Notes under the pieces: generated by a model
What the model was told of the DNA's origin: nothing
The model's input: the letters and a program-made list of their open reading frames with translations, nothing else
Database searches by the model: none
Virus record (IMG/VR): IMGVR_UViG_3300032304_000900
Span: 13,914-77,913 of that record
Length of the DNA: 64,000 nt
Reading direction: 5' to 3' (one strand)
Source: a virus
Shown: positions 7,750 through 38,800 of the stretch, in pieces
Position numbering within the stretch: the stretch's first letter is position 1
Layout: each line of letters opens with the position of its first letter
Made by a program: the position numbers and the translations under genes

Positions 7750-10700
7750 TTATGCCTGTGCTTCTGTCCATGAAATACGAGCAGCAAGATTTCCTGGAGG
7801 AGATAAAACAACAGTACCATTTGTACCAGAGGTAGCATTTTTTGAGAATGCCACGTCATATCCACCACCAGCTTTAGCAGTAATAGATTTGACAACACCA
7901 CCAGCAGCAGTACCACCTGAAGATGAAGAAACAACCCAACCAACTTCAAAACCAGTTACATCATTAATAACCACAATTGGTGAACCAGCAGTAGTTGTTG
8001 TTGGAGAAACAGTAATCGGTTGTAATACGTTTGAGCAGCAAATCGTAATAATATCTGGACCATCAGGATAAATGTTTACGTTTGAGTTTAGTGTTAATGA
8101 ATTTACCAATCCACCACCAAGAACTGAGTTACCAAGATCACGAACTTTATCTAGTTCATCTGTTGTAACTGTGTAGTTTAATCCACCACCACCTTGGTCT
8201 GTATAAAAAGCGAAAATTGTTTCACCACCAGTAATCTGCGTTCCGCTTGGGTGATATACAACTTGAGATAATGAAGAACCACCTACGTTTTGGAATGTTG
8301 GTGCATTTGTAATAAATCTTGGATTTAGAATAATACGAATAAAGAAAGCACCATTTGATGTAACACCAATAGATCGTAAAGTTAACTGCATACGATTTAT
8401 AATTTCTTTCAATCCAAGAACACCAGAAGCACCATTATCAACTGATGGCGCAACACGCAAACTTAATACTGCGTTAATTGTTGTTGTATAGTTTGTAACA
8501 TAAGATGGGTTACCAGCAGTAAACACCAGAGATTTATCGTCATCGTAACGACCATCCATAATAACAGATGTACCCCAGTGATTTGCAGTTGGGGCAAATT
8601 GATTAGTATGTAGAAATACTGGAATAACTGGACCATCAGTATCATATGTATGTGTAGTGCCAGAGTTGTTTGCTCCGTTTGCGTTTGAAGATGCTGCGTA
8701 TACGTTAAAATTAGTAATATTACCAGTACCAGTACATGCTTGGCTCAATTCAATAGTCGAGGCTGAAGAATTAAAACCAGTAATAAATGTGTTTTCTGGA
8801 ATGTTTGTACCAGTTACGAATGCTCCAATCGGAGCCATGTTTAGCGAATTGCCGATTGAATTTTGTGCAAATCCTTTTGAAGTCGTAACAGTATTACTTC
8901 CGTTAACAGTTGCAACAGTTCCACCACCAGTATTAAAATAATCAGAACGATAACCAGCGATAGTTGCGCCATTCATACCAAGACCAGCACCACGTTGTGT
9001 TACTGTAAATGTTGTTGCTGTTTTACTACTGTATTGAACATATTCATAATAATCAGCACCACCTGGAGATCCACCTGTTAAAGCAGCATCTGCTGATGTT
9101 CTTCCTGGATCTGCAATTAACAATACACCAGAATTTGGAAATCCTTCTGTACTATTAACAGTTAATGTTGATGTTCCAGAAGTAAATGTTTGAGTGATGT
9201 AAGTATACGGTGTGAATGTATGAGTTTCGTAGCGAGCTGGCAAGTTACCAGAACGCATATATGCTTCAGTATTTATGTTAGAGTTGACGATCCTGTGACA
9301 GTAGATAATTCTACCTTCTTGATCTTTAAAACCAAAACGAATTGCGCCAGCACCGTACCAAGCGTAGTCACAATAAATCATCTGCATTTTGTTTAGATCT
9401 AGTGTAAAACCAGATGGACCGTAACCATCGCAACGATCAATGTTCCATTGAGATTGCGGAATACGAACTTCATTAATTTTATTTACAACACCACCAGAAA
9501 TTGTAGCACCACGATATTCTGGATTGATACGTATTCTTAAATCGTTAATAACTTCCATAACACGATAAGACATACCCTTAACAGAAATCCAATCTCCTGG
9601 ATTCAACTGTTTCAGAAACTTAGTTTGTTTGCCTGTTCCTAAAGATGTTACTGAGTTCACTTCATCTGAACCATTAGTTACTGCCACCAAACCAGATAAC
9701 TGAGTTGTTGAGTTTCTTCTAACTGCTGTTAAATTTTGTCCGTCATATTCAAAATAAAATCCGTTGTTTTGATCAAACATACCAACACGAATACCAGCAC
9801 CATACCAACCTGTTGCTCCAACGATTGGGAAACCGAAAGCAGTTGTTACTGATGGTGTGCTTGCCATTTGATATGTAAAATCAAATTCATTATTAACGTC
9901 TAAAACAGTAAAGTTACCATTATAAGCACTTGTTGACAGTCCTGGCTCTGTTGCTCCAGAAATGTTGATAGAGATTCCTGGTTGTAAGTTGTGTGGTTCT
10001 TTTGATGTTGCTGTCGCAATATTACCAACAGAAGAAATAGTATCTAATGTGAAATTTGGACGGAGAACAGAACCTGTTGAAAATTGAATACCTTTACCAG
10101 ATTGATAGCGGAAGTAACGTCTTGTTTGACGCAACGCTTGATAGTTATGACTTTGTGTGTTGGTTGAGAAACGAACACCACCATCGAATGGTCTATGAGC
10201 AAATGTTGACTCATTACGAACATAACAACTTAATGAACCAACAGCAGTAATAGTTGGCACGTTTGATCCAGCTGCCATCAACACACCAAACTTACGTGGG
10301 CTGTATACAGCCATAACTGTGTAAGAGGTTCCTCCTGGATTTGTTCCAGTTGAAATTGTTGCAGCACCTGTTAGATAAACAAGATTACCAAGTGTCAAAC
10401 CATGGTCACGTGTTGTTGTGATAACGACAACAATGTCATTAGCTGGCGATCCAGCTGCAGTAGCAGAGAATGCTGCTGCGCTACTAATTACGATTTGTGA
10501 ATTAGTATAGAAAGAGCCAGCATATGTTGTTGTAATACCTGTGTTAAAAATAGATCCTGTTGTTCCTGGGAAGTTAGCAGAGGAACGATAACGAATTTCC
10601 CAACGTGAAGATGCGATTACTGGAGTTGTTAACTCAATTAGATAACCACCATTGGCTGCAGTAAATAATGACTCTTGAACTTGAATAGGAGAACCAACAT

Positions 10701-11427
10701 CAGGAATTCTTTGCGGAGCAAAACGGAAAGCTGAAGTAACTTGATTGACTGCTGCGTTCGATTGCAATGTTAAAGAAGTATCTGTTTCAACTGTTGAAAC
10801 AATACCAATTAATGTATCAGAAGAGTTATAAAGCGCATATCCTGGAAAAATTGTAGATAAGAAATTGGTTCCTGCTCCAGTAACAATTGTAGAAGTTGTA
10901 CTTGTTGTTGCGTTACCAGTTCCAGAGTTATAATTAGCATATACAATAATATTTTTAGAACCATTTGTTGCTTGAATATCTGAAACAGCAATTGGTGACT
11001 GTAAGTCAACATAGAACGAAGGACGTCCATTCAATAGAGAAATATTTTCCCATTTGGTTGGTTGTGTTCCGTATTCAAAGTCAGTATCAATCAACGACTG
11101 TGGTGTTGACATGCGCATTTTCTGCACAGGATCTTGATATGTTTCTGCAGGAATAATTTCTTGAACACTATCGTCATAAACGAATTGTAACGAGTCTGAT
11201 GAAGACATCGTTGTTGTGTTATAATTTAACGTAATTATTGTTACACCATTATTAACTGTATATGCAGTTGCAGTTAAGTTTGGATCACTAAAGTTGTAGA
11301 TAACTTTATTCTGTGTTACGTTTGTAATAAGAACAAGATTTTCTCTTTGAATCGCTTTCGGAATTGAAACTATGCGAGACGCAGGAGTAAATGTATAATA
11401 CTGTTCAGTTAGGACTTTTTTGGCCAT
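7750..11427 (-). CDS. Large virion structural protein (fibre/receptor-binding-like), paralogue of 12475..15552
   Basis: 1225 aa, Thr/Ser/Gly-rich beta protein in the neck/fibre region with its own late promoter; shares long conserved blocks with the 1025-aa ORF. Confidence 0.7.
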   Translation of the reverse strand: MAKKVLTEQYYTFTPASRIVSIPKAIQRENLVLITNVTQNKVIYNFSDPNLTATAYTVNNGVTIITLNYNTTTMSSSDSLQFVYDDSVQEIIPAETYQDPVQKMRMSTPQSLIDTDFEYGTQPTKWENISLLNGRPSFYVDLQSPIAVSDIQATNGSKNIIVYANYNSGTGNATTSTTSTIVTGAGTNFLSTIFPGYALYNSSDTLIGIVSTVETDTSLTLQSNAAVNQVTSAFRFAPQRIPDVGSPIQVQESLFTAANGGYLIELTTPVIASSRWEIRYRSSANFPGTTGSIFNTGITTTYAGSFYTNSQIVISSAAAFSATAAGSPANDIVVVITTTRDHGLTLGNLVYLTGAATISTGTNPGGTSYTVMAVYSPRKFGVLMAAGSNVPTITAVGSLSCYVRNESTFAHRPFDGGVRFSTNTQSHNYQALRQTRRYFRYQSGKGIQFSTGSVLRPNFTLDTISSVGNIATATSKEPHNLQPGISINISGATEPGLSTSAYNGNFTVLDVNNEFDFTYQMASTPSVTTAFGFPIVGATGWYGAGIRVGMFDQNNGFYFEYDGQNLTAVRRNSTTQLSGLVAVTNGSDEVNSVTSLGTGKQTKFLKQLNPGDWISVKGMSYRVMEVINDLRIRINPEYRGATISGGVVNKINEVRIPQSQWNIDRCDGYGPSGFTLDLNKMQMIYCDYAWYGAGAIRFGFKDQEGRIIYCHRIVNSNINTEAYMRSGNLPARYETHTFTPYTYITQTFTSGTSTLTVNSTEGFPNSGVLLIADPGRTSADAALTGGSPGGADYYEYVQYSSKTATTFTVTQRGAGLGMNGATIAGYRSDYFNTGGGTVATVNGSNTVTTSKGFAQNSIGNSLNMAPIGAFVTGTNIPENTFITGFNSSASTIELSQACTGTGNITNFNVYAASSNANGANNSGTTHTYDTDGPVIPVFLHTNQFAPTANHWGTSVIMDGRYDDDKSLVFTAGNPSYVTNYTTTINAVLSLRVAPSVDNGASGVLGLKEIINRMQLTLRSIGVTSNGAFFIRIILNPRFITNAPTFQNVGGSSLSQVVYHPSGTQITGGETIFAFYTDQGGGGLNYTVTTDELDKVRDLGNSVLGGGLVNSLTLNSNVNIYPDGPDIITICCSNVLQPITVSPTTTTAGSPIVVINDVTGFEVGWVVSSSSGGTAAGGVVKSITAKAGGGYDVAFSKNATSGTNGTVVLSPPGNLAARISWTEAQA

Positions 11428-11457: not shown

Positions 11458-11465
11458 TATTTATA
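11458..11465 (-). promoter_or_regulatory. Canonical T4 late promoter TATAAATA
   Basis: Exact TATAAATA about 30 nt upstream of the ATG at 11427. Confidence 0.8.
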
Positions 11466-12474: not shown

Positions 12475-15400
12475 TTATGCTTGTGCTTCAGTCCAAGCCA
12501 CACGACAAGCAATATCCTGAGCAGTACCAGTAATATTTGTTACAACAACGTGAATAGTATCTGGACCATCTGGATAAATGTTTGCGTTACCAGCAGTACC
12601 ACCACCACCAAGGATAGAGTTACCTAGATCACGGACAAGATTCAAATCTTGTGCAGTGGTTGTAAAACCAGTACCAGATCCTGGGTTTGTATAGAAACCA
12701 CCGATAATTTCACCACCAGACATTGTTGTACCAGCTGTGTAGATGATATACTGAGCCAGTGACGAACCACCCTGTGATAACCATGTACCAGCAGTTGACG
12801 GAGTTGAGTTCAAGAACAACTGAACTAGGAAACGTCCATTAGATAGAACACCAATTTGACGTAGAACCATTTGCATGCGGTTTACGATATCACGAGAACC
12901 AATTGCAGAAGCAGCGGATCCGTTCGATACGTGAGGTGCGATACGTAGAGCCAACACTGCGTTTGTTGCGCCAATACCAATGTTAATTGGTGCTGTCATA
13001 CCACGCAAGAACACGAATGATTTATCGTCATCGAAACGACCATCCATCATTACGGAAGTACCCCAGTGATTAATTTGTGAACCAACTAGTGGCGCATGTA
13101 ATTGAATAACTGTTGGTGCTGTTGCTGAGAATGTAAATGTCTGAGCAGTTTGTCCCATTGGAGCGTATACCAATGTTGTAGTTGCTGAAGACTGAGCAGC
13201 ACGACTTAGTGTAATTGATGTATTAGCAATAAAACTCACAACATATGTGCCGTGTGGGAAAATGCCCAAAGAAGGAGCCACGACATACTGACCAATTTGA
13301 ACACCTGTTGTTGAAGAAACAGTTACTGTATTAGAACCACTAGTATGTGTGCTGCTTATAGAACCACCTGCTTGACCACGAGTAATACCACCAAATGTAG
13401 TAGCTGATTTGGTTGTGTAGTTAATATATTCTGTTTGAGTGCCGTTGCGGACCATCAATGTGCCAGAACTTGGAAATTCGGTAGTTGATGTTACGTTGAT
13501 TGTTGTATCAGAAGAACCGAAAGTAGCAGTAGAGAATGTATACTTAGAAATAGTATTTGTCTCATAGCGAGCTGGTAAGTTACCAGAACGCATATATGCT
13601 TCAGAATTCAAGTTGTTATTCATTTGTCTGTGACAGTAAATAATGTTACCATCAGCAGCACGGAAACCCCAACGAATGTAACCAGCACCGTACCATGAGT
13701 AGTCCATGTAGTACATTTGCATCTTAGATGTATCTAAAACAAAGCCACTTGGACCTGTACCATCGCAACGATCCATGTTCCAAGCAGATTGTGCAATTCT
13801 GGTATCGACTGTTTTAGAAATAATACCTTTTGTCAAGTTAGAAGTACCACGATATGCTGGGTAAATTGTCATGCTTGTGTCAGAAGCGATGTTTAGAACA
13901 CGATAAGTATGACCACGCAATACGATAAAATCGTTTGGTTGTAATTGTTTAGCGAACTGAGTTGTTACACCATTTGTTGTTAAACCAGTAACTGTGTTAT
14001 CAGCAGCGTTGATGGAAACGAAACCACCGATTTGATATGTTGAAGAGCGACGAACAGCAAACAGTCCTTGTCCATCGTGTTCAAAGAAGATACCATTCTG
14101 ACTGTCAAATATACCAGTGCGGTTTGTACCACCATACCATGAGTCAACACTGATTTGGAAGTTACCAGAAGCTGTTGCTGCTGATGGTGTACCAGAAGCA
14201 GTATATTCAAAACGATAACGATCAATTACACGTGTTACAGCGTATGTTCCGTTATATGCAGATTCGGTTGTGCCAAACACTTTAATACTAACTGTTGGCT
14301 GTAAGTTGTGTGGGAACTTGGTGTAAACAGTTACAGTAGAGCCTGATGATGTCATCGCATCAACAGCTATCTGTGACTTTAGTGCTGTACCAGTCGATAC
14401 TTGAACACCTTTACCAGACTGGTAACGGAAGTAACGACGTGTCTGACGAATCATTTGTTGATTGTGAGAAGGTGTATTTGTAGAGAATGATACACCACCA
14501 TCAAATGGACGATGATTTGATGTTCCAGGAGGGCGCACGTAAATGGTGTTAGCAGAACCTGTTGGAGCACCAGCGTTAGCAGTAGTATCTGTGTAGAAGC
14601 AGAATACAGTTGGTGATAGAATAGAGTAAACAAAGTGATTACCATATTGAGAATCTGTTGCACCACCTGTTTTGCTGTTAATCAAAGCAATTTCGTTACC
14701 AATCTCAAGACCATGTGGTAATGTGCAAGTAACTTGTTGTAACTGACCAGATGGAGCAGCGTAAGTTGGTGTACCACCTAAACCTGCACCAGTAAAGAAC
14801 TGTGCGTCATAAATTGTTGTTGGGATATTAGCATCATTGATATCTGTTGATGGTGTACTACCAGTAATCCATGCTTCGTTTGCTTTATAAGTGAAAGAGG
14901 TACCACCTGGAACTGTTTCGATTATGAATAAACCATTAGCAGGTGCCCAAGCTGAATCTTGAATCATTACCATTTGACCAACTACGAAACCAGTTGAAGA
15001 ACCTACAGTTACAGTAACAAGACGAGATCCGTTTGATACTGTTAAGTTTGTAATTGTTGTAGCAGATGCTTGGCTGCGACCAAAGTTTGGACGATCCAAG
15101 TTAATGAAAGCGGATGGACGATTATTGATTAATGATAATTGTTCCCATTTAGTTGGCTGTAAACCATATTCAAAGTCAGTATCAATTAAAGATTGTGGCT
15201 GAGAAGTACGGAATTTACCAACTGGATCCATTAATGTTTCGCCAGGAGTAAACTTACTTTCGTATTCGTCAACGATAACTTGTAGTTTATCGTTCGCTCC
15301 CATTGATGTTGTATTATATTGCAATACGATTGTTGTAATCGCATCACTTTGGTATCCTAACGCTGCACCACCTGTAGTGTGCGTGTAAGATGTTGCCTTC

Positions 15401-15552
15401 AGGTTTGGATCACTGAAGTTGTAAATCACTGTATTTGTTGTTACATTGGTAATCAACAGGAGCGATTCACGTTTGACAGCACGTCTTAGTGTAATTGTTC
15501 TTGTTGATGGGTCAAATGTATAATATTGATCAGGTAGGACATTTCTTGCCAT
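12475..15552 (-). CDS. Large virion structural protein, paralogue of 7750..11427
   Basis: 1025 aa; shares PQSLIDTDFEYGxQPTKWE, RQTRRYFRYQSGKG, YMRSGNLPARYET, HWGTSVxMDGR and the C-terminal WTEAQA. Confidence 0.7.
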   Translation of the reverse strand: MARNVLPDQYYTFDPSTRTITLRRAVKRESLLLITNVTTNTVIYNFSDPNLKATSYTHTTGGAALGYQSDAITTIVLQYNTTSMGANDKLQVIVDEYESKFTPGETLMDPVGKFRTSQPQSLIDTDFEYGLQPTKWEQLSLINNRPSAFINLDRPNFGRSQASATTITNLTVSNGSRLVTVTVGSSTGFVVGQMVMIQDSAWAPANGLFIIETVPGGTSFTYKANEAWITGSTPSTDINDANIPTTIYDAQFFTGAGLGGTPTYAAPSGQLQQVTCTLPHGLEIGNEIALINSKTGGATDSQYGNHFVYSILSPTVFCFYTDTTANAGAPTGSANTIYVRPPGTSNHRPFDGGVSFSTNTPSHNQQMIRQTRRYFRYQSGKGVQVSTGTALKSQIAVDAMTSSGSTVTVYTKFPHNLQPTVSIKVFGTTESAYNGTYAVTRVIDRYRFEYTASGTPSAATASGNFQISVDSWYGGTNRTGIFDSQNGIFFEHDGQGLFAVRRSSTYQIGGFVSINAADNTVTGLTTNGVTTQFAKQLQPNDFIVLRGHTYRVLNIASDTSMTIYPAYRGTSNLTKGIISKTVDTRIAQSAWNMDRCDGTGPSGFVLDTSKMQMYYMDYSWYGAGYIRWGFRAADGNIIYCHRQMNNNLNSEAYMRSGNLPARYETNTISKYTFSTATFGSSDTTINVTSTTEFPSSGTLMVRNGTQTEYINYTTKSATTFGGITRGQAGGSISSTHTSGSNTVTVSSTTGVQIGQYVVAPSLGIFPHGTYVVSFIANTSITLSRAAQSSATTTLVYAPMGQTAQTFTFSATAPTVIQLHAPLVGSQINHWGTSVMMDGRFDDDKSFVFLRGMTAPINIGIGATNAVLALRIAPHVSNGSAASAIGSRDIVNRMQMVLRQIGVLSNGRFLVQLFLNSTPSTAGTWLSQGGSSLAQYIIYTAGTTMSGGEIIGGFYTNPGSGTGFTTTAQDLNLVRDLGNSILGGGGTAGNANIYPDGPDTIHVVVTNITGTAQDIACRVAWTEAQA

Positions 15553-15599: not shown

Positions 15600-16067
15600 T
15601 TAAGAAAGCACAATTGGGATTGCTCTGAAAATATTCCTTGTTGCAGTGTTAACACTATTAACATATGTTCCCAACAATCTTCCATAAAATTTTTGTCCTC
15701 TGTTGGGTGCGTTTACGAAAGTAATATTACTTCCAGAAACAGTATAGTCACCCTCAAGAACAACATCTACTTCTTGTTGAAATACATACTCTTCGTATGT
15801 ATTAACACTATATGGTGTCAGCAACAAATTGCCAAGAGATACTAACAGCGCATGTGGACTGCTAACACTAACAGGAACTGTATTATAGGTCAACGAAAAT
15901 GATTTTGTTGATCCATCAAAGTTGTTTGTTAATTCATCCAACAATGTAACAGTCGCTGCATCTCTCAGATTGATGAAATTTTGATCAATCTCAGAAGCAG
16001 TAAGAGGAGATCCTTTTGTGGTATCTCCTGCATTACTTAATGTTCTTAGCGTTAAATTGCCAGCCAC
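15600..16067 (-). CDS. Fibre adaptor-like structural protein
   Basis: N-terminal KGSPLTASEIDQNFINL, a motif common at the N-termini of phage fibre proteins; C-terminal FDGSTKSFSL...YTVSGSNITFVNAP module; GTG start. Confidence 0.55.
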   Translation of the reverse strand: MAGNLTLRTLSNAGDTTKGSPLTASEIDQNFINLRDAATVTLLDELTNNFDGSTKSFSLTYNTVPVSVSSPHALLVSLGNLLLTPYSVNTYEEYVFQQEVDVVLEGDYTVSGSNITFVNAPNRGQKFYGRLLGTYVNSVNTATRNIFRAIPIVLS

Positions 16068-16081
16068 ATCAAACCCCTATA

Positions 16082-16549
16082 TTAAGGTGCGTTGATTGTG
16101 ATTGTCCAAGTAATTGCTAATGTATCTGCTGGGTCTTTATTAACAACAGCAAAAGTGGTACGACACAACATTGTTCCACCAGAACTATTGTTGAAAATAC
16201 CTGCTTCTTGAATACCTTGCGAAGTAGCTGGATTGTTTGGTAAGAATGTACCAACATAAGTAACTACGTTCGCAGCATTAGAAGCTGCTGGCGAAAATGT
16301 GACACGTGTTCCAACCTCACCACCAAGAGCAGTATCACCTGCAGCTGCAGCAGTAGCGTTAGTACCAATAGCCATATGTGTCATAGCAGCTGGTGAGTTT
16401 GTTGTTGTCTTGAGCATAGAAGCTGCGATAAATGTTTTACCAGTATCAACAACTAAGTTCTTAATTTCTCTCTCATCTTTAACTTTGCCATCTGGACTGA
16501 TAACCTGAATTTTCAGGCGTCCAACTGCAGCTAAATCTTCGTAAATCAT
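16082..16549 (-). CDS. Small virion structural (fibre-associated) protein
   Basis: NLVVDTGK...MAIGT...DTALGGE...EAGIFN...GTMLCRTTFAVVNK...WTIT pattern typical of phage tail-fibre-associated proteins; AAGGAG SD. Confidence 0.6.
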   Translation of the reverse strand: MIYEDLAAVGRLKIQVISPDGKVKDEREIKNLVVDTGKTFIAASMLKTTTNSPAAMTHMAIGTNATAAAAGDTALGGEVGTRVTFSPAASNAANVVTYVGTFLPNNPATSQGIQEAGIFNNSSGGTMLCRTTFAVVNKDPADTLAITWTITINAP

Positions 16550-16597
16550 TGTTTTTTTCTCCTTAGATCTATGGTAGGAATCAAATTTCTACTGTTT

Positions 16598-16605
16598 TAT
16601 TTATA
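16598..16605 (-). promoter_or_regulatory. Canonical T4 late promoter TATAAATA
   Basis: Exact octamer upstream of the ATG at 16549. Confidence 0.8.
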
Positions 16606-16609
16606 AACT

Positions 16610-19600
16610 TCAAAATGTTGAGGTTACGATACTTTGCTCATAATCGTCCGCAAAATAGATGATTGGAGTATTAGTTGCGTAGCCATTTGGTGGATATAAT
16701 CTTGCTGCACCTGACGTGTTCGCTTCGAATGTATCCGAAACTCTTTTTGTTACACTGAATATCGTTTCATCTGCTGGCAACATCAGTTCAGTTACATAAT
16801 CTGGCCAATATTGTGTTAACTCGTTAAAATTCTCGAGTTCCATATAATCGTTCCAGATATGTGCCCTATATGAGCCACCCTGTTTATTATATTGTATAGT
16901 ATCAGAATCTACTGTTCTTACTTTGTCTCTCTTAAATTCTGTATATGCTCCAAATGTCAATAATCTTGGATCAAAACTTAATATTTCATATGAATCAATC
17001 CAGAAGAAGTCAGATTGATCGCCAAGGATTTTGCTATATCCTTTTTGTGGCAAATCAGTTGCTCTTGACAAATCGCTTGAGTTTTTGCCTTTAGCAAATA
17101 TAACAGAATCAGTCGCTCTTGGAACATCGCTTAAACCTTTTGTTGGTCTCTTTACAATTACATCAACTGAAGTTAGATACTCAACTCTGTAATCTGGATA
17201 ATTTTGAGCAAGTTCATTAAATGGATGAAATTCATTATAATCATTCCAAACTTGCCATACATTAGAACCAGCAGTTTTTCCGAATTGTCTGTTGCTATTA
17301 AATCCAGCATTTATGATCTCTGCTTTTGCACCTGGAGAGAACTGAATACTTGGTTGAGAAACAGCTGTTGGTGTTTCTGCACAAACTCTGTTGAAATTTA
17401 CAGTTTTAGATAACGCATCAGCAGCCACCATAAATTCTGTTCTAAATGGTGTTCTGATTAGTTCATATAATTCCTCATAAACAAACTCTTCAGTATACTT
17501 ATTGAATATTGTATAAGGGAATGCATTGTTTGATGGACCATAATAACCATAAGTCAACAATGTCAAATCATAAACAGATCTTGCTGTTTCTAAGTAATCA
17601 TTCCATGTGTTTACTGGATCTTGACCACCAACTTTTGTGTAGTTAATTACATCAGCGTCTGGTAATGTAACTCTATCAATTTTGTAATCTGGATAATTGC
17701 CAAAACGAATATCTTCCTCATAGTTACTTACATATGCGATGTAAAGAGGATTCCATATATTTCTATCAACAGAAACAGTGGTATCACCAATATATGGTTT
17801 TGTTATAACCCTTGGCATTGTTTCTGTTAAACCAACAAATTCTACTGAAATTTTTCCATAGTCGAGTCTAATAACTTCAACTGGTCTAATTATTTCTGTT
17901 ACATAATCCTGAGCAAATTGTAAACGCAAATCTCTATCATAGAATATTTCCTCATTGAAGAAATAGTCCATGATACTTTGTGTTCTACCACCCTGTTTTG
18001 TAAACAGGTTTGCCTTTTGATCAGTAATTTTACCAATATCAACTGTAGAATCTGTTCCACGATAGTAATATTGTGCTAATTCTAAAGATACCTCAAGTTC
18101 TGGATAATCCTGCCAAGTGCTATAATATGAAGAAACATTACCTGCAGCCAAACCAACATACCTAGCAAGAGATTCAGATGCTCTTGAAATGTCATTAGTA
18201 CCATAAAGTAATGTAAATAGTGGTCCACCATTTTTAGACAACAGCATCGAATCAGTTATGGTAACTGTGTCATTGAATGTTTTAGATGCTGTCCATATTT
18301 TTGTAAATAGATCAGCAGTTTTAATAGTCTCTGGTCTTGTTGTTGGTTGATACTGAACCAACTCTTGGTCATATTCTGTTGCCAATGTCAATTCAGCAAA
18401 GTCGCTCCAATATGGCGACACTCTAATAATTGGTGATTTCGTAAATGTTTTTGGAGCAGAATCTGTTGTTCTAACAAAATCTGTTTTGCTACCTGGAACA
18501 AATGTTAATGTTAACTCCTCATCCATAATTGGTTCGCCTGTTGGACTATGTTCTCCAATAGGATTAATACCAAGCCAATCACGGAAATATGATGCTAAAC
18601 GACCATCACCACCATTAATAGAAACTTCTTTACCAATTCCTTCTGCTAGGTTGATTTGTTCTGATTTATTTGGTCTAATAGATCTTCTAGCATCATCAGC
18701 AACTCTAGTTATTTCTGTGTATTCTCTAGATCCCCACGTAAATGTAGAGAATTGATCTGTTGCTGTTGCGAATGTTAAATCATTATAATCTCTCCAAACA
18801 TACGAATCGAAATATAGTGTTTTTGTAAATCCTTTTGCTGCCAAATCGGGAACAAGAATAGCATCATATTTTGTTCCATAATCAATACCCATTATACCAG
18901 AGAAAATAAATTCTTGTAAATCTGTCCAAGTATTTACTTGAATTTCTCCAGCAGTTTTGTTTACAACTTTTGTTAATGTTTCATTACCAGCAGCTGCAGT
19001 ATCAGCACTTGGTTTACGAAGTGTAAGAGTTCTTACTTCAAGTAAGTTAATAATTTCAGAATTAGTTTTGGTTAAACCAAGTGTGGCTTTTGAACAAACA
19101 TCAAGAATAGTAACACTTGTTGGTTTGGATTTAATAAATGTTTGTGTTAATTCTTGATCCAAATATGATGGACCACCAAAAGACAATTCATTATAGTCGT
19201 TCCAGAAACCTTGTGGATATGGGTCAACAGCAATTTTAGTAAATGTTCTTGCTGTTGAATCTGTATAAGAAACTTTATCTCCATCAGATCTATCACGAAG
19301 TGTAAATAATAATTCTTGTCCTAAAACATTATGACGACTTAATGATGTTGGACCAATATTAGAAACAAATGGACCTGTCTCGGTAAATGTAATAGTGAAG
19401 TTGTTAATGCTTTCACTGTCGTCAATAATTGGATAAGTGAAATCCAAGAAATCACTAAGAACTGAAGATCTTACTGTAGAAAAGTTAACTGTTAGACCAG
19501 AGATGGTTAAAATACCACCAGTTCCATCTACTGTCGCAACGGTAAACGAACATGATTTACCATTTCCCAAATCAACAGTAAAGAAATTTCCTGCAGTATA

Positions 19601-21934
19601 CCCTGTTCCAGGAGTTGTTATTGTTGCAGTATAAGAACTATCTACACGTGATACAGAAATTACTGCTCCATATCCACGAATGTTTGTATATGTTTCTTGT
19701 GTATAGAATAGATCAGCAAAATCATTAAATACTCGACTTTTTACATCACCAACTGTTGTAGATAAAAATCTTCCAGTAGTATCAGATCCTGCTGCAGTGT
19801 CTGAGTAACTTCTAACATAAGAAACAGTTTTTCTAAATGTTTCTGTAAAAGTTACAAGATCGTGATCTAATGAATACGCTTGTCTCCAAAACTCTTGAGC
19901 AATTTCTTGATCAATATCTGCGCCAAGCGACAGTTCATTAAAATCAGTCCAAGTAGCATCATAGTAATATGTAAATGGACCAATTCGCTTAGAATAATTC
20001 TTAGCAAAAGTTTCGTTTAGTTTTAGGTATTCAACTCTGTAATCTGGATAGTATTGACAGAGTTCATATGTTCCCTGAAGTTCATTAAAGTCTGACCATA
20101 CATTAAATACATTTTCTCCAGCAATTTTATTATATGTAATAACATCTGTATCTTGTGCCTTTGCTGTGTCAGCGTAAGTTTTAACATATGATACAATTTT
20201 TCTAACACTATCAGTGATTCGTTGCGTATCTGCTGGTGGGAAAGCTGCAGGTTCAATAATAGAACTGAAGTACATGCTGTCACTAACACGAATAACATCA
20301 GCAAGAACTTTACTAAACACTCTTGCTGTAATTTGGTCAGCTGATCTAGAAACATCAGCGAGTGATCTTGGATACAAAGCAACACGAGAAAATGTTTCGG
20401 ATGCGCCAGCAGTGTCGCTAAACGATCTTACATAAGAAACTATTTTGCTAAAATTATCTACTGTTGATGATGAATCGGAATGTGAACGAACGAAAGAAAC
20501 AACTTTGGAGAAATTGTCTGTTAGATAAGAGGTATCTGACTTGCCTCTGATGTAAGAAACAACTTTGGAGAAATTATCACTAACATTTTGTAATTCAGAG
20601 AAAGCACGATTGAATTGTTTTATCGTTGCAATAATGTCAGCAGTATCAACTGTGTTTGCGCCAGAGTTAAAGCTGCGAGAGAACTGAACAATTTTATTAA
20701 AACTATCTCCAGCTGCAATTAAATTTTGTTTTGGTTTAAAATATTGTATTGTTGAATCATCTGCTGTTGCTTCAGTATCACTAAATGGTGCTTTGCTTAA
20801 TGATTTTGCTGCTAATTCTGGTATTGTTAGTGTGTCACTATATGCTCTTACGAAATTAACAATTCTAGAAAATACATCAACTGCAGTGTCCGTGTCATTA
20901 AAAACACGATTAAACGAAACAACTCTTGTTAATTGTTGATTAACTGTAAGTCTGTCTGTTCTTGGTTTGTTTACAACTCTAGAAAGATTTTCTTGTGGTC
21001 TTGCAACATCTTGGAAAAAACGAACAAACGAAACAATTCTTGCAAGCGAATCTGAGATAGCAGAAAGATCAACTTCTGAATCACTTACGACAAGAACACC
21101 TGACTCACCAAGAAACTGATCAGCGACCAATAAGAAATCAGAAACTCTTTTAGTAAATACTAATGTTCTCGAATCATTGCCTCTAAGTATTTCGCTAACA
21201 TTTTTACCAAAGTTAATTATATCAGAATCACTTAATCCAAATGTATCAGATCTTGGTTTACTAATCAGTTTGGGGAAAGTATCAGCAAGAGAAACAACAT
21301 CAGTTTTTGGTTTAGTTATTGCAAATGTTTTCGCATCAGCAGTTTGAATGATGTCTTGTTTACTGCGTAAGAATGTAACAACTTTACTGAAGTTATCAGA
21401 TGATTGTAAAACCTCAGTAAAGTTTTTACCTACAGTGAATACACGTGCATCAGTATAAGACGCAGTATCTGCGAATGGTGCTTTGGATATTGTCTTGGCT
21501 GGTTGGTCTTGAGATATTGTTGTATCGTTATACGATCTATAGAAAGAAACAACTCGAGTAAGAACATCATTAAGCGTGACGATTTGAGCATGGAATTTAC
21601 CAAGATTGACAATAGAAACATCATCGGTAATTCCAACAGCATCAATTGCTGCTTTTGTTAATTGTAAAGTTTTGGCATCGATAACAACACCAGACTCAAC
21701 AAGAGTAAGAAGTCTACTAAGAACATCGTAAGCAACTCGAACAGCTGCAGCACCTGTACGTGCGCTTGCCATTGCTGCTCGAACAGCTGCAGCTGGCATC
21801 GCTACTGCTTTTTGTACTGTTTGTCTTAGATTTTCTGTCGAAATGCTTTTTGTTTCTGAACGAGATGATGCCGTAACCTTGTTCGGTGTACTGCTTATCT
21901 TGTTGTTTTTGTCAGAACCTTTAGCATTTGACAT
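16610..21934 (-). CDS. Long repeat-rich fibre-like virion protein (1774 aa)
   Basis: About 19-20-aa tandem repeats (SDxxxxxDxFSKVVSxVRSx) interspersed with W-x-D-[YF]-x-E-L inserts; C-terminal YFADDY. Confidence 0.65.
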   Translation of the reverse strand: MSNAKGSDKNNKISSTPNKVTASSRSETKSISTENLRQTVQKAVAMPAAAVRAAMASARTGAAAVRVAYDVLSRLLTLVESGVVIDAKTLQLTKAAIDAVGITDDVSIVNLGKFHAQIVTLNDVLTRVVSFYRSYNDTTISQDQPAKTISKAPFADTASYTDARVFTVGKNFTEVLQSSDNFSKVVTFLRSKQDIIQTADAKTFAITKPKTDVVSLADTFPKLISKPRSDTFGLSDSDIINFGKNVSEILRGNDSRTLVFTKRVSDFLLVADQFLGESGVLVVSDSEVDLSAISDSLARIVSFVRFFQDVARPQENLSRVVNKPRTDRLTVNQQLTRVVSFNRVFNDTDTAVDVFSRIVNFVRAYSDTLTIPELAAKSLSKAPFSDTEATADDSTIQYFKPKQNLIAAGDSFNKIVQFSRSFNSGANTVDTADIIATIKQFNRAFSELQNVSDNFSKVVSYIRGKSDTSYLTDNFSKVVSFVRSHSDSSSTVDNFSKIVSYVRSFSDTAGASETFSRVALYPRSLADVSRSADQITARVFSKVLADVIRVSDSMYFSSIIEPAAFPPADTQRITDSVRKIVSYVKTYADTAKAQDTDVITYNKIAGENVFNVWSDFNELQGTYELCQYYPDYRVEYLKLNETFAKNYSKRIGPFTYYYDATWTDFNELSLGADIDQEIAQEFWRQAYSLDHDLVTFTETFRKTVSYVRSYSDTAAGSDTTGRFLSTTVGDVKSRVFNDFADLFYTQETYTNIRGYGAVISVSRVDSSYTATITTPGTGYTAGNFFTVDLGNGKSCSFTVATVDGTGGILTISGLTVNFSTVRSSVLSDFLDFTYPIIDDSESINNFTITFTETGPFVSNIGPTSLSRHNVLGQELLFTLRDRSDGDKVSYTDSTARTFTKIAVDPYPQGFWNDYNELSFGGPSYLDQELTQTFIKSKPTSVTILDVCSKATLGLTKTNSEIINLLEVRTLTLRKPSADTAAAGNETLTKVVNKTAGEIQVNTWTDLQEFIFSGIMGIDYGTKYDAILVPDLAAKGFTKTLYFDSYVWRDYNDLTFATATDQFSTFTWGSREYTEITRVADDARRSIRPNKSEQINLAEGIGKEVSINGGDGRLASYFRDWLGINPIGEHSPTGEPIMDEELTLTFVPGSKTDFVRTTDSAPKTFTKSPIIRVSPYWSDFAELTLATEYDQELVQYQPTTRPETIKTADLFTKIWTASKTFNDTVTITDSMLLSKNGGPLFTLLYGTNDISRASESLARYVGLAAGNVSSYYSTWQDYPELEVSLELAQYYYRGTDSTVDIGKITDQKANLFTKQGGRTQSIMDYFFNEEIFYDRDLRLQFAQDYVTEIIRPVEVIRLDYGKISVEFVGLTETMPRVITKPYIGDTTVSVDRNIWNPLYIAYVSNYEEDIRFGNYPDYKIDRVTLPDADVINYTKVGGQDPVNTWNDYLETARSVYDLTLLTYGYYGPSNNAFPYTIFNKYTEEFVYEELYELIRTPFRTEFMVAADALSKTVNFNRVCAETPTAVSQPSIQFSPGAKAEIINAGFNSNRQFGKTAGSNVWQVWNDYNEFHPFNELAQNYPDYRVEYLTSVDVIVKRPTKGLSDVPRATDSVIFAKGKNSSDLSRATDLPQKGYSKILGDQSDFFWIDSYEILSFDPRLLTFGAYTEFKRDKVRTVDSDTIQYNKQGGSYRAHIWNDYMELENFNELTQYWPDYVTELMLPADETIFSVTKRVSDTFEANTSGAARLYPPNGYATNTPIIYFADDYEQSIVTSTF
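20370..20600 (-). repeat. Most conserved block of the 60-bp (20-aa) coding tandem repeat
   Basis: SELQNVSDNFSKVVSYIRGK / SDTSYLTDNFSKVVSFVRSH / SDSSSTVDNFSKIVSYVRSF / SDTAGASETFSRVALYPRSL; the DNA string aagaaacaactttggagaaatt recurs at 60-bp spacing. Confidence 0.85.
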
Positions 21935-21990: not shown

Positions 21991-22329
21991 TTAAACCTGC
22001 GTAATCTGTGGTGACACAATAATTATTCCTTCAACTGGTCTTGTTCTATAAGTAGAAGTATCAACCATTTCTATATCATAAAGATATCTTCCTGGTTTTA
22101 ATGCGCCTGTTTGAGTAGCAGTTAATGAAAGAATAACTTGTCCTGTTGCGGGAGAGGGAACTGTGCATGTAAAAGTAGTCGCAGTTGATGACGCATAAGA
22201 TTTTCTCATTTGCGAAGTAAATGAGTAACCAGTTAAATTTAATGGCGTAATTCCATTATCAGCATATAATGTAATGCCAGTGGAAAAATCTGCTCCTTGA
22301 TCGATATAAAGTGCTTGTACTAATGCCAT
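21991..22329 (-). CDS. Small Ig-like/BppU-like virion protein
   Basis: LYIDQGADFS...LNLTGYSFTSQMRKSY...LSLTATQT..LKPGRYLYDIE...EGIIIVSPQIT, a common T4-like structural family. Confidence 0.65.
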   Translation of the reverse strand: MALVQALYIDQGADFSTGITLYADNGITPLNLTGYSFTSQMRKSYASSTATTFTCTVPSPATGQVILSLTATQTGALKPGRYLYDIEMVDTSTYRTRPVEGIIIVSPQITQV

Positions 22330-32823: not shown

Positions 32824-35800
32824 TTATGTAGTCATTTCTGTTATAATTGCAGTGCTTGTATTATTTATTGAACTTCCAACAACCTCTGTGTTTCCTAGTT
32901 TTTCATTTCCATTGTTTACCACAAAATAGTCGACTTCGCCGAACACAGCCATTCCAGCTGGATGAACTAATCTATTAAAGTATGGTTTCCAATTCTCAAA
33001 TGTATTAGAACCTCTTACGACATAAGAATAATCTTGATAATAATAAGAATCTTGTAATTTCATTGTCGTGTTTATTAACTGTTTATCGCCTTCATAGTTA
33101 ACTGTAGATCCATTTGCTGTTGATGTAGTTATAGATCCAGGAGAGGCTGTAGCCTCTGCGATATAAAGACCAATTTCAATAGTACCACCACTTACATATG
33201 CTGCGCCAGAGGTAGTAACAAAAGTTGTAAGTCCAGAGTTTGTAAATAATCTAAATGTTGTATCTGTTATTGGTGACGCATAATATAAACCATTGGCAAC
33301 TCCTTGTGCAGCTAAACCAGAAATTTTAACTTTGTCGCCTCTGGAAATATAATGTTTTGTGCTGGTTGTAAATACAGGAGTTGATGATATTGTAACTGAA
33401 GTAATAGAATATGTTCTTCCAACTACAACTGTAGCACCAGATGTAACACCTATCAATGTATTGCCAAAAGCAACGATCGTTGCGCCACCATTTGGTTTTA
33501 TTTTATAGTATCTTCCAATTTTAGAAACAAATGTTCCAATCTCTGTTGAACCAATTTTAACTGTTTCTCCATCAATAAATGTTCCTGTTGCATTTGTTCC
33601 TAAAAATGTTGCAGGCAATAATAATGTTCTACTTACAGAATGTAAACCACCATTTAATATTTCTAATGTTCTTAATCTTCCAATGTCTTTAATAATTGGA
33701 TAAACTACTGCACCAGAACCATTTCTTGGTCCAACATTAATAGACATTTCTGGAAGTCTTTTATAGGATCCTGGAGATGTTAACACTATTTGATCAATTA
33801 CACCTGTTTCTGTTTGTAAAGAATCAGAGAACATAATCGTAAATTCTTCATATCCAGTTCCAGTTGTTGATGGATTCGCAGCCATTCCTGCATTTGGTTT
33901 TGTCGAAAGAGGAATTACTTCAGCAATCTCAGAAGCAGTTGTAATATTTGTTCTATAGAAATAATGTGTTCCAGTTCCTGCTCCAGTAATATCGATTGCA
34001 ATTGAACTTAATGCGTTTTCCAAACTTGTTGCAAGTTTAAATGTTGTTGAATTGACACGAATTACATAAACAGTAGATGGTATATTTCCAACAGATCTTT
34101 GAATTGATGTTCCAGTAGTAGAATATGTTAACTCTTCGCCAGTATAAAACCCATGATTAGATGCAGTAATTATATCAGTAGATACATTTACTCCTGCTGC
34201 ATTCGTAGAGACAGTTCCAAAATTTATTGTTGAACCATTAGAGTTTGATGTCAATGTGAAATGTTCTTGTGTTCCTGTACTTATTGAATCTTTTACATAC
34301 ATTGTTTGACCAGAAACAATTCCTGGACTTAAAACTCTTTGTTGCCTAAACTCAACTTCATCACCATTTTTAAAATAATTTTTATAATTTGGCGTATAGA
34401 AAAACTGCTCTTTGTTTGATGAATCGGCGAGCATGTTGCCGTTCGATCCATCAATTTCGATTGTGTGTACACCAGAACCAGAAGAAGTTATTTGAACATA
34501 AATTCCAGCAAGAGCATCATTTTTGTTTGCTGCTATTCTTAACTGATTCTCTGTTACAAAAATAGCATAATAAACTATTCCAGCAAGCAATCCACCAATA
34601 GGATTTCCTGTTGTATTGTATGTCATTGTATTAAGAGTTCTTAACGTATGTTCTGATGCTGTTGTTAAGATACCAGAAACTGTATTTATTCCTGTTATTT
34701 GAACATTATCAATATATTTTCTAGTGTCAAACGAATTTTCTTTTACCGAGTTGTAGGTAAATGACTGTGGAATAGTTTGTAGTGAGCATGTTTTTCCAGA
34801 AGTTCCAAACGCAGTAATATTTACAAAAGTAGATGAGTTGTAATTATCTTTTGATGTTGCTAATCTAATTGTGTTTGCGTTTACTACTTTAACATAATAC
34901 GTAGTATCATCATTCAATCCTGTTGGTTTTGTGCCATTAAAATCTGATCTAAATCTTACCCAAGACCCATCAGCAAAACCATGATTTGCTATACTAATAC
35001 TTCCAGGTGTTCCTGTTGTTACATCTGATGATGGATCAAAATATCTAGAAATAGAGATATTATCATCTGTGATCATGCCCATAAAAGATGCATTTACTGG
35101 ATTGTTTATTGCAGAATTAACAGTTGTCCCAGAAACAATAGGATTATAAAATAATTCATTACCATCATTATTAGAGCCAAAATCATTTCCTAGTGAAAAT
35201 GGAACAAGAGAATTTGTGTCAGCAACAGCATCAGCTTGAGTTGAATACAATTTAACATATTTACCATAATCATTTTCGCCCTTTCTAATGTATAAATCTC
35301 TAACAAAAGGCGAAACATATGCATTATCAACAACTGATAGTGTGGGATTGATTGTTAACATTCCACTATCAGAGATTTTTTCAACTATTGTATCTGATTT
35401 ATGTAATGCTCTAATCGAAACAGTGTAATCTCTTATTGTTGTATCTGGAACAACAATTGAGTTTGGCGACCAACAATTATAGAATTGATAAACTGTTCTT
35501 TGAACATCACTTGAAACTTTTGTATACTCTGCCTTATTAGCATAAAACACAACATGTTTCTTTGGATCTGCTGATGGCAAAGATGGAGAATAAAATTCTA
35601 TCATTACTGTTGATTCTAGTATAGATAAATTGCCTTCGGCTAGTGAGTTAAATCCAAAATCATTTATTTCGTATGCTAAATACTCACCATCTTCAGCAAG
35701 ATAAACCGACTCACCAGAGAATATAGAATCCTGCATTGTGATATATTCTCTAGTATCACGTTTAGATACTGATGTAGTATGTGATAAACTGTCAATAATG

Positions 35801-38800
35801 TTTCTTAAATTGACCTCAAATGGAATATCAAAATAAACATTTAATTCTTCTGGCAAAGAAAATCCAATTGTAAAATATCTTTTTGCGTTACTCTTATATG
35901 CACCAAAACTAGAAGAAGTAATTCCCAATGGACCATTTTCTGCAGTAGGTATTAGAGATGTATTATCATAATATTCTTGTTCAATAATACTAATTCTTCT
36001 TTGTTCATCAAATTCTGCTGCAAATTTAAAAGATCCAGCACCAGTACCATCTGTAAAATAAACTGAATTGTTCTTTGAAGATGCAACCATAACAGTTGAA
36101 CTTATATTGGAAAATTCTGATGGACCTGAAACATAATCTGATGTGTTCGTTGGATATGCTACTGTTAAATATGGAGTTTCACTGTATTCATCATTATAGG
36201 TTGGTTGAGCGACTTCAAACAATTCTTGAGCTGGACTTATTTCTGCGTAATCATCCCAAGATTTAAATAATCTTCGTTCACCACGATTAATATCATCTAC
36301 AGATTGCAAAGATTTTCTTTCAATCATAACACGAACAGAACTGAAATCTGGAATTTCAATTTCATTATTGTGTTGAATAACTCTTGTAGAAGAAGTTTCT
36401 GATGCAAGATATGGATAAGCAACATATCCTTCTGATTCGTTTTCGCTGCGTTTGTCTATTTCAAATTCAATATTTACTTGATCGCTTGTATTAAAATCAG
36501 CACGTTCCATAATAATATAATCTACACTTTCATTAATTGATTGAAATAGATATACTTTGTTATCAACAGTATATGGGTATGTTGTTTTTAAATTTGTATC
36601 AGAATCTGTTGGAATGTTTGGGTCTAAATTATATTTTAAATCCAAATCACGTGAACCACATGAACGCTTTCTTGCATAAATAGAAATTGCTGATTCCTCA
36701 ACACTACTGGATGTATAATCAACACCATTAGTTACATGGTTGCCAACAAAAGAACACAATGTGTTTGTTCCAGAGGAACCTGCTGCGGTAATTGTTCTAA
36801 ACAATTGATAGTGTAAATTTTCTCTTCCATAAGGAATCAGTTTAATGTTATTACTATCAACCACATATGCGTAAAATAATTCTCCATCAGTTGCGCCACC
36901 CATAACACTAGAACCCTCAGTAGTGTTAAAACGAACGATCTCACCTTGCTTAAATGGATGATTTGGTAAAAGAATTTGGTTTGAGGAAACAGCTGCAAAA
37001 GGATCAAATCCTGTTACATTAATTGTTTGTTCCCAGTTTTCTAAAATAAAAATATCATTAGAATTTGTTTCAGAAATATAATCGCTACCGTCTTCGTCTA
37101 AAATTAATGTTGCTCTTATGTCATACTGTACTGGCATTACAAAAATTTTACAATTTACTTTAGCATTTTTTTTAAAAATAAACTTATATTCCCATGGTCT
37201 TGTAGTATTTAAGTCATGACCATAAAGTGTATTTCTTTCTCTAATGTAAACAATTGGTCTTTCAACACTATGATCTGCTTCGGAAAATGGATATAATGAC
37301 GAAAGTGTCTCTTGACCAAATTTATAAACACCTATTTGTTTTGTTTCAGATATTTCGCCAATTTTTTGATCTAATATTTTTGTTTCAGTATATTTTCCCA
37401 TAAGGGTAGAAACAATTGGAGCATTTACTGTAGATCTGTTGGTTGCTTCAATTCTTTCTAATGCATTATAATCTGTTTGTGTATCAAACTCAATAATTAC
37501 AGTTCCTGGGCATGATGGTGTTCCTGTTGTGCATTGTGATGTTCCAATCCACAATTCTTCATCAACAAGTTCAATCGCAATTCCTTCATTTCTTGCCCAA
37601 TTAATTGAATAGTTTGATGTAGCTCCAATTCTAGGAATAATTGCTCTAAACAATCCTTGATTGTATGTGTACGATGATCTTGTATAAGTCACAATCTCAT
37701 CGCCTTGCTGCTCTAATAAAAATCCAAATTCTGCTGAAGATATTGAACCTGTGTTAATATTTGTAGATGTCTCATCAGAAATTTTTAAGTTAGATGTAGA
37801 AATTTCAGAACCAAAATTTCCCATTTCTTGACGCAGTTCAAAATCATTTTCAAAAAGGATTTTGTCCTCTGCGTCGATCCAGTTTACACCACCAATTTCA
37901 GAAACAAGATCTTTGTTAATTGTTCTTGCAATTTTTGCTGTAGCAGCACGATCTCCTTCGTTCAATGTTCCAAAAGAAACTGTATCAAAAATAGAATAAT
38001 TATCTCCAGCATTCTCTAGAACAATATCTTGAACGAAACCAGCAGTAATTCCTTCAACTTTAATATCTTCGGTGTTTGATACTGATGTAGCTAAAATTGC
38101 ATCATCGCCTGGAATATAACCAAGACCAGAATAAGATACTGTTGTTTCCGCTAATTGAGTTCTTAAGTTAAATGTAACAGAAGTGCCATCAGAATTTACT
38201 GCATAAACTATTGATATAGATGAAAAATTTAAAATAACATTATCTGCGGTTAAATACAATACATCATCAGTTGGATCATAATCAACTACTCTTGCTCTTA
38301 CAGTTACATTACCATTTACTGCATCAACTTGATAAATTTCAGAATTTACAAGTTTATCAATAGTTCCAGAAGAAAGATTGTATATTTTTATTTTAAATAC
38401 TTTTGTCCAAACACCAGCATTTAATTTCAAAACATCTACTTTTGGTAAATATACCTCAACTTCTTCACCATATAAAATTCTAAAAAAACATTTAACAGAG
38501 TCAATAGAACCTTTTGAATTATAAAACTCAACGATGTTTTTAAGAATAAATTTCTTATCTGCTTTTAATACTTGAGGGAAGTCTGGAAGAAACAATGTGT
38601 AAAAAGTGGTAACAATATCATCATCGTTTTGTTCATCGATATCATTGTATGTTTCTAAGTTTCTTATTACACCAAGTGCTTTTTCCGATTGCTCAAGATA
38701 TTGATAATACTTTTGCAAAAATGTAATGAATTTAGCATAATCTGAGCGAATAAACTCAGGTGCTTGATAATCAACAACTGTTGACGGATTTGCTTTAGCG

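Follow-up and report, generated by a model that had tools for sequence, protein, structure and literature searches.

The stretch of DNA analysed here, hereafter the window, comprises 64,000 nucleotides of the IMG/VR virus record IMGVR_UViG_3300032304_000900 (positions 13,914 to 77,913 of that record) and comes from an uncultured marine phage of the T4-like kind. An earlier note on this window had drawn attention to a long fibre protein whose short repeats are interrupted by about ten aromatic and acidic inserts of the form W-x-D-[YF]-x-E-L, and had read these inserts as looped-out docking sites, each recruiting a partner, in a branched fibre. The whole flagged region lies in a single reading frame on the minus strand (16610-21934), encoding a protein of 1774 amino acids (aa), P0001; the inserts will be called cassettes. 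P0001 belongs, as an outsized member, to a widespread family of repeat proteins, for which Pfam has no entry and which we name X here, and its gene is the central one of a three-gene module that reads, in order, 21991-22329 (a small LtfC-like beta-sandwich protein), 16610-21934 (P0001) and 16082-16549 (a155, a putative Gp80-like protein).

All ten of the cassettes listed in the earlier note are found in P0001, their tryptophan positions being confirmed by the regular expression W-x-D-[YFLS]-x-x-[LFTI] applied to the protein, together with an eleventh that was missing from that list (FWIDSYEIL, Trp at aa 1645). The eleven tryptophans stand at aa 613, 662, 911, 1003, 1047, 1176, 1274, 1444, 1563, 1645 and 1694, and hidden Markov models (HMMs) built from the cassettes add two degenerate copies, at aa 735 and aa 825, with F or L in place of W. 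Against these 11 matches, 20,000 shuffles of P0001 gave a mean of 0.12 and a maximum of 3. The protein contains 18 tryptophans, 11 of them inside cassettes, and its first 599 aa have none.

The whole of P0001 is built of successive units, each starting with a hydrophobic-x-Lys (h-x-K) anchor. The N-terminal third carries about 14 copies of F-S-K-V-V-S-F-x-R-x-x-S-D-T along with shorter h-x-K-P-x-x-D units; beyond aa 600 the anchor units go on, and 10 of the 11 W cassettes come straight after such an anchor. A typical cassette consists of the anchor, [AG]-G, about six residues as a short strand, W-x-D-[FY]-x-E-L, a variable linker or loop, and [DN]-Q-E-L-x-Q. The linker that joins the two conserved halves spans from about 4 to 24 aa, varying both among copies and among orthologues, and the cassette with W1444 is cleanly missing, as a unit, from two orthologues (P0010 and P0014). 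The cassettes are thus modular inserts in a series of short repeats, as had been proposed, and, since they are discrete inserts, the two ends of each must be close together. The region that holds them is 14% aromatic. The possibility that the cassettes arose by internal duplication of the C-terminal YFAEDY tail was considered and discarded, as the cassette HMMs match the tails of X proteins only at E values of at least 0.6 and a tail HMM misses the cassettes. WD40, YD/RHS, ricin QxW and cell-wall-binding repeats were likewise rejected, given the lack of any Pfam match and the irregular spacing.

A word-index search recovered about 25 full-length relatives of P0001, every one of them metagenomic, and a HMMER scan over 1.84 billion representatives gave 11 clusters. 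These relatives range from 1728 to 2513 aa and have 11-13 cassettes each. In a 17-sequence alignment the cassettes occupy orthologous positions and are retained down to 29-35% overall identity, with W613, W1003, W1047, W1274, W1563 and W1694 invariant, as is the aspartate at +2 from each of them. Averaged over the 11 cassettes in 11 divergent orthologues, conservation is highest for Asp +2 (0.94) and Trp (0.87), followed by Gln +14 (0.77), Gly -7 (0.75), Glu +5 (0.73), Leu +6 (0.68) and Lys -10 (0.65), the remaining positions lying between 0.3 and 0.6. Where the cassette tryptophan is substituted in orthologues, the replacement is always F, Y, I, L or V. The cassette cores score 0.62, against 0.44 for the remaining region, in what is the fastest-evolving gene of the module (29-51% identity in four divergent loci, where its neighbours keep 40-92%). 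Even though P0001 is strongly repetitive, so that the cassettes might be a by-product of biased composition, the excess over the shuffles, the complete absence of tryptophan from the N-terminal repeat half and the retention of the cassettes at such low identities refute this explanation, whose probability we consider practically nil.

The cassettes are restricted to one clade. Their strict DNA pattern was found in 12 stretches of IMG/VR, ten of which belong to P0001 orthologues and two to unrelated proteins, and the cassette HMMs gave nothing significant against ordinary X proteins and no match in phages GP4, BUCT-ZZ01 and phiA008. The two unrelated viral proteins (L003:7872-7919 and L005:1971-2018), treated as non-fibre matches, share W-x-D-F-V-E-x-V-x-x-P-E-L-x-Q-Y with each other, and one of them resembles an AAA-type ATPase. 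At the thresholds used, neither Pfam nor PHROG yielded a family for P0001 itself, and tblastn matched it to none of 50,697 phage records; PDB sequence searches with profiles of the P0001 family, the cassettes and X revealed no relative (a keratin match of the cassette profile was dismissed as chance), and an ESM Atlas search with whole P0001 gave nothing useful. In those Pfam, PHROG, tblastn and PDB sequence searches, no similarity appeared to any described family of homotrimeric tail fibres, of the type of T4 gp34/gp37 or T5 pb1.

Profile comparisons and gene order show that P0001 belongs to family X. A survey of 44 IMG/VR loci centred on homologues of a155 showed, in 39 of them, the same gene order: a gene of about 110 aa for an LtfC-like beta-sandwich protein, X, and a Gp80-like gene of about 147 aa. 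This order is strictly kept in the five loci orthologous to that of the window. The P0001 profile matches the gene directly upstream of the a155 homologue in 33 loci, with whole-protein E values from about 1e-28 to 1e-4, and the alignment covers the N-terminal segment and the short repeats (profile positions about 50-450). Profile positions about 1703-1770, at the C-terminus, align weakly to a few X tails (the best domain reaches E = 1e-5, and most of the others lack significance), and the A8 profile matches a P0001 orthologue of 1840 aa. Ordinary X proteins vary in length (212-562 aa) and are of low complexity, being made up almost wholly of strand-like h-x-K...D repeats of 14-20 aa, which follow an N-terminal segment and precede a YFAEDY...TF tail; the YFA[ED]DY tail and the terminal phenylalanine are common to them and P0001. 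Since cassettes are absent from ordinary X proteins, the region of P0001 that holds them (aa ~600-1720) is a lineage-specific expansion within an old and widespread fibre protein.

In the loci of ordinary X proteins, the gene before the module (about 216 aa) encodes an SU10-type head-tail adaptor (PF24175), and many of the contigs measure 42-63 kb. A cultured phage, Aeromonas phage phiA008 (OL774570.1; L023:6750-8441), has the full short module, in which the LtfC-like protein measures 127 aa, the X protein 296 aa and the Gp80-like protein 146 aa. In the T4-like phage of the window, the module is flanked by the wedge genes gp6-gp8 and the neck genes gp13-gp15, the place that genes 9-12 and wac hold in T4. 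The TerL of this phage is about 50% identical to those of the nearest cultured phages, and one complete relative has a genome of 165 kb. The features of the locus are collected in Table 1.

Table 1. Features of the P0001 locus and of the gp7-like gene, in window positions
Feature	Position	Strand	Evidence or remark
112-aa LtfC/p132-like beta-sandwich protein, module gene 1	21991..22329	-	phrog_3304 E = 1.6e-25
P0001, giant member of repeat-protein family X, 1774 aa	16610..21934	-	open reading frame; ~25 orthologues; X proteins of 212-562 aa found by its profile
N-terminal short-repeat region (aa ~100-600), Trp-free	20135..21637	-	repeat analysis; part common to ordinary X proteins
W cassette 1 (W613)	20030..20134	-	regular expression and orthologue alignment
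W cassette 2 (W662)	19883..19987	-	six orthologues with I/V/L/F for W; six with a 15-aa linker insertion
Degenerate cassette VFNDFADL (aa 735)	19709..19732	-	HMM
Small beta-barrel insert (aa ~750-820)	19478..19687	-	AlphaFold2 pLDDT 70-88; fold matches weak
Degenerate cassette VLSDFLDF (aa 825)	19439..19462	-	HMM
W cassette 3 (W911)	19136..19240	-	regular expression and orthologue alignment
W cassette 4 (W1003)	18860..18964	-	regular expression and orthologue alignment
W cassette 5 (W1047)	18728..18832	-	regular expression and orthologue alignment
W cassette 6 (W1176)	18341..18445	-	regular expression and orthologue alignment
W cassette 7 (W1274)	18047..18151	-	regular expression and orthologue alignment
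W cassette 8 (W1444)	17537..17641	-	whole unit absent from orthologues P0010 and P0014
W cassette 9 (W1563)	17180..17284	-	regular expression and orthologue alignment
W cassette 10 (W1645, FWIDSYEIL)	16934..17038	-	regular expression, alignment, HMM
W cassette 11 (W1694)	16787..16891	-	regular expression and orthologue alignment
Conserved C-terminal tail (..YFADDY..TSTF)	16613..16717	-	T1773 and F1774 invariant; ordinary X tails ..YFAEDYVG..RTF
a155 leader, 60 nt	16550..16609	-	T4-type late-promoter box TATAAATA at 16598-16605; perfect AAGGAG Shine-Dalgarno
a155, 155-aa Gp80-like small fibre protein (putative), module gene 3	16082..16549	-	PF23140 below threshold; hhalign; ESM Atlas
b155, 155-aa protein with fibre-type N-terminal motif	15600..16067	-	unrelated to a155
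Cassette-like motif, single copy, in gp7-like wedge protein (aa 850-868)	36205..36261	-	regular expression, HMMs, hhalign

The other two genes of the module encode small proteins. The 112-aa product of the first gene shows weak matches to the T5 LtfC chain (PDB 8hqz) and to Pfam LtfC, and can be aligned from end to end with the products of about 110 aa encoded upstream of X; a relationship of its family to gp77 of phage GP4 was rejected, as no similarity was found. The third gene encodes a155, which has more than 7000 homologues and whose signals for the Gp80 family are weak but consistent. PF23140 (GP4 Fiber I protein gp80) is matched by 26 of 34 members of the a155 family, all of them under the 27-bit cut-off (best E = 5.9e-5); hhalign of a155 against GP4 gp80 gives E = 0.0038 with a probability of 9%; and the nearest named cluster in the ESM Atlas (score 0.96) has PF23140 in 16% of its members. 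In a 954-aa chain of known structure, annotated as 'Baseplate hub' (PDB 9h4p), two domains in tandem are matched by the a155 family profile (E = 4.2e-5), and in Synechococcus phage BUCT-ZZ01 an a155 homologue lies directly after gp5, with the X gene absent there, so that the a155 fold serves outside the three-gene module too.

The expression signals of a155 set it apart within the module. Its 60-nt leader is nearly identical in five orthologous loci (L013, L014, L016, L017 and L018), in four of which the giant genes are 29-51% identical, and the only other perfect TATAAATA on the minus strand of the first 45 kb stands at 11465, preceding a gene for a 1225-aa protein. The Shine-Dalgarno sequence of a155 is the strongest in the module, and the giant gene has no recognisable one; a late promoter of its own together with a perfect Shine-Dalgarno fits production of a155 in excess. 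A pairing of a155 with the next protein, b155, in the manner of the two small proteins of A1002, was rejected, the two being unrelated and b155 not being Gp80-like.

A long repeat protein with small partners has precedents. In phages GP4, VP1 and A1002, dimers of a Gp80-type protein are strung along a "rope" by beta-sheet augmentation: in GP4 the rope is a protein of its own that bears five dimers, and in A1002 it is the fibre-dock domain of gp39, which bears eleven, made of two different small proteins, gp40 and gp41 (PMC13730344). Here as there, a long repeat protein is encoded beside a protein of about 140-170 aa, of Gp80 type there and putatively so here, and a small beta-sandwich collar or adaptor, near head-tail adaptor or neck genes; repeats are similarly numerous, with 5 and 11 docking sites there and 11-13 cassettes plus about 25 short repeats here, and the small partner is probably overproduced. 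The GP4 genes for Gp80, an adaptor of SU10 type and a small adaptor between fibre and tail form one cluster. However, P0001 shows no recognisable resemblance in sequence to these ropes, and the Gp80 similarity of a155 is below threshold; P0001 is 3-8 times longer and rich in aromatic residues, GP4 lacks W cassettes, and the carrier is a T4-like myophage, whereas the others are podophages. Beside gp80 of Ralstonia phage GP4, a 325-aa open reading frame (gp79; L021:27948-28925) has about ten Gly-flanked, strand-like repeats of about 17 aa and a rope-like look, although it could not be confirmed as the published rope, being absent from the PDB sequences.

The same arrangement of rope and dimers forms the collar and whiskers of the myophage Bas63 (PMC12609058). 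In Bas63 and Sf14 (Felixounavirus), an Ig-like collar with a rope-like extension holds whisker dimers resembling GP4 Fiber-1, at a neck-associated site analogous to that of T4 wac (PMC12609058). The Bas63 rope differs, however, in being an N-terminal extension of the collar protein with two dimers only, and none of the Felixounavirus records was matched when a155 was compared with them by tblastn.

Two other systems offer partial likenesses. As in the L-shaped fibre of T5 (LtfC/p132 collar and pb1), a small beta-sandwich anchor gene adjoins a very long fibre gene, and the 112-aa protein matches the LtfC families; P0001, however, has no similarity to pb1 and no detected C-terminal chaperone domain, and T5 is not known to have a Gp80-like gene at the corresponding position. 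The adhesin gp38 of T2/T6-type phages, a fast-evolving host-range protein, has glycine-rich motifs between hypervariable segments. P0001 resembles it in the recurrence of short conserved framework motifs with variable segments in between, but its motifs are aromatic and acidic instead of glycine-rich, scale and fold differ, and there is no homology.

The earlier note had named the products of the downstream genes as candidate partners of the W motif, and this part of it did not hold up. Homologues of a155 that are 50-65% identical adjoin X proteins without cassettes, the N-terminal motif of b155 also stands at the head of the gene that follows a155 in several loci without cassettes, and about 100 cultured cyanomyoviruses (S-PM2 among them), which by tblastn lack this fibre, encode full-length homologues of the 1025-aa protein at 43-45% identity. 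That all of these occur without cassettes argues against the cassettes as required docking sites for them. If a155 docks on X, it must use the short repeats, which include the anchors that precede most cassettes; a lineage-specific partner other than the named candidates may still bind to the cassettes. The wider idea of a multivalent fibre remains plausible, since the module includes a Gp80-like protein with its own late promoter and fibres made of a rope and dimers are documented (PMC13730344, PMC12609058); what finds no support is the W motif as recruiter of the named proteins. The 1025-aa protein (12475-15552) and the 1225-aa protein (7750-11427), both on the minus strand, are paralogues within phrog_5838, and their full-length homologues in those roughly 100 cultured cyanomyoviruses, including S-PM2 and S-RSM4, are annotated as virion structural proteins.

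The same motif had also been reported in gp7, where it is indeed present. The open reading frame 32824-38808 encodes a gp7-type baseplate wedge protein of 1994 aa (PF23786 E = 2.3e-12, above cut-off; phrog_2885 and phrog_17744, baseplate wedge subunit), in which the segment SWDDYAEISPAQEL (aa 850-863) is the sole strict match of the regular expression outside the fibre in the 77.9-kb contig. The motif is retained in 34 gp7 orthologues. Among 273 six-frame open reading frames, gp7 is the top non-fibre match for three of four cassette HMMs, its whole-protein E values being 0.47 (ranked second), 0.033, 0.0064 and 0.0052, and hhalign, given the profiles of the cassettes and of the gp7 family, returns a single alignment exactly on the motif (P = 4.4e-4, probability 34%). 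On the other side, the likeness is confined to about 16 residues and of modest significance, and the gp7 copy was not retrieved at E of at most 1 in a whole-genome cassette scan of one complete relative. We thus regard the gp7 copy as real, but as evidence of common origin with the cassettes it is suggestive, being too short to prove homology. A relaxed motif, [WYF]-x-D-[YF]-x-[ED], has two matches outside the fibre, in gp7 and in a DUF4815 protein, against 0.46 expected, which is not significant (P = 0.07). In the latter protein (2734 aa), residues 8-36 at the N-terminus (30653-30739, minus strand) contain ..YYDDYAED.. and, 15 residues on, ..RELTQ.., recalling WDDYAE of gp7 and the two cassette halves.

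Structure prediction was attempted with AlphaFold2 monomer runs on P0001 aa 600-1774 (25-sequence alignment) and gp7 aa 660-1130 (34 sequences). With these shallow alignments, the mean predicted local distance difference test (pLDDT) score was 31 for P0001, where only the beta-barrel insert was confidently folded, and 48 for gp7, whose motif scored below 40. A fold search with the beta-barrel insert gave matches with Z of at most 4, among them a domain of the T4 sheath protein gp18 (Z = 4.0, 21% identity). The unfolded monomer model would be compatible with an obligate oligomer or an assembly-dependent fold, for which it is weak evidence at most.

We tentatively favour, at somewhat less than even confidence, a reading in which the cassettes serve as structural nodes, each complete in itself and built around a small aromatic core, and thereby extend and stiffen the distal fibre. 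In this clade, about 1,100 residues have been inserted between the X repeats and the tail, bringing in 11-13 W cassettes and the small beta-barrel. Each cassette would make a hairpin-like excursion, self-contained, whose conserved Trp, Phe/Tyr and Leu would form a small hydrophobic core, probably only upon assembly with itself or with partners. Jointly, the cassettes would form a conserved framework giving added length and stiffness to the distal two-thirds of the fibre, which evolve fast, and they would not be obligatory docking sites for downstream proteins. A hydrophobic role is suggested by the exclusively hydrophobic or aromatic residues that replace the tryptophan and by the cassette cores being conserved islands. 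Several observations, however, weigh against this reading. Asp +2 and Glu +5 are invariant in every copy, which is odd for a purely hydrophobic core and would suit a binding site too; the own late promoter and strong ribosome-binding site of a155, next to a fibre gene without one, suggest many copies of a155 per fibre, as on a rope with beads; the conserved gp7 copy is more easily explained by a common partner than by a core internal to the fibre; and AlphaFold2 gives pLDDT below 40 (about 25-30) over every cassette, so that the predicted burial of the tryptophans is not supported.

The idea of the earlier note, in its best-supported form, would make the giant protein a rope that takes up Gp80-like a155 dimers along its length by beta-sheet augmentation, possibly together with other proteins, with the W cassettes as docking sites or parts of them and a bottle-brush whisker as the result. 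Such an architecture is plausible for family X, by analogy with the solved ropes that bear 2, 5 or 11 Gp80-fold dimers (PMC13730344, PMC12609058): the strand repeats of X proteins are of low complexity and variable length, the parts of the GP4 locus are similar, with the SU10-type adaptor also found upstream in X loci, and the Gp80 signals and conserved leader of a155, the fixed number of cassettes and the failure of AlphaFold2 to fold P0001 alone all point the same way. With the cassettes as the docking elements, however, we consider it rather unlikely, since the a155 homologues beside cassette-less X proteins imply docking that is independent of the W motif, for which the short repeats are likelier sites. 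The Gp80 similarity moreover stays under the Pfam threshold, b155 provides no second Gp80-like protein, and the aromatic cassette region is unlike the Gly/Ala-rich repeats of GP4; the lack of sequence similarity to the 325-aa protein of GP4 or to any PDB chain decides little, ropes being of low complexity. A bolder version, which we hold to be unlikely, would have a 1774-aa rope of the GP4/A1002/Bas63 type at the wac position, whose approximately 25 short repeats and 11-13 cassettes hold dozens of Gp80-like copies, perhaps with a second partner on the cassettes, in a giant bottle-brush whisker, and whose partner would also be anchored on the baseplate by the gp7 copy. Alternatively, each cassette could be a weak pocket of Trp, Tyr/Phe, Asp and Glu for a host-surface glycan, providing multivalent and reversible binding to the host. 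The aromatic and acidic signature kept in every copy, the variable loop between conserved halves and the fast evolution of the gene, as expected of host-contact proteins, would agree with this, and GP4 Fiber-1 and the Bas63 whiskers have been speculated to bind lipopolysaccharide (PMC12609058). We nonetheless find it improbable, as the cassette is defined by its conserved and not by its variable residues, no similarity to carbohydrate-binding families was found in Pfam or the PDB, and a copy in gp7, an internal baseplate protein, would be hard to account for.

Whichever role the cassettes have, the analysis defines a module, composed of an LtfC-like anchor, the repeat protein X and a Gp80-like protein, that occurs very commonly among uncultured phages and whose central protein is without a Pfam family. 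The module connects podophage-sized genomes with a T4-like myophage, and its central protein grew about five-fold in one lineage through the addition of a new class of repeats. As a cultured bearer of the short module, phiA008 makes it possible to test whether X proteins work as ropes with beads. If the giant protein is such a rope, the module, present in thousands of uncultured phages, would be a general fibre system of this kind; chain-like fibres would be far commoner than the few solved cases imply, and the W cassette would be a new docking or spacing element.

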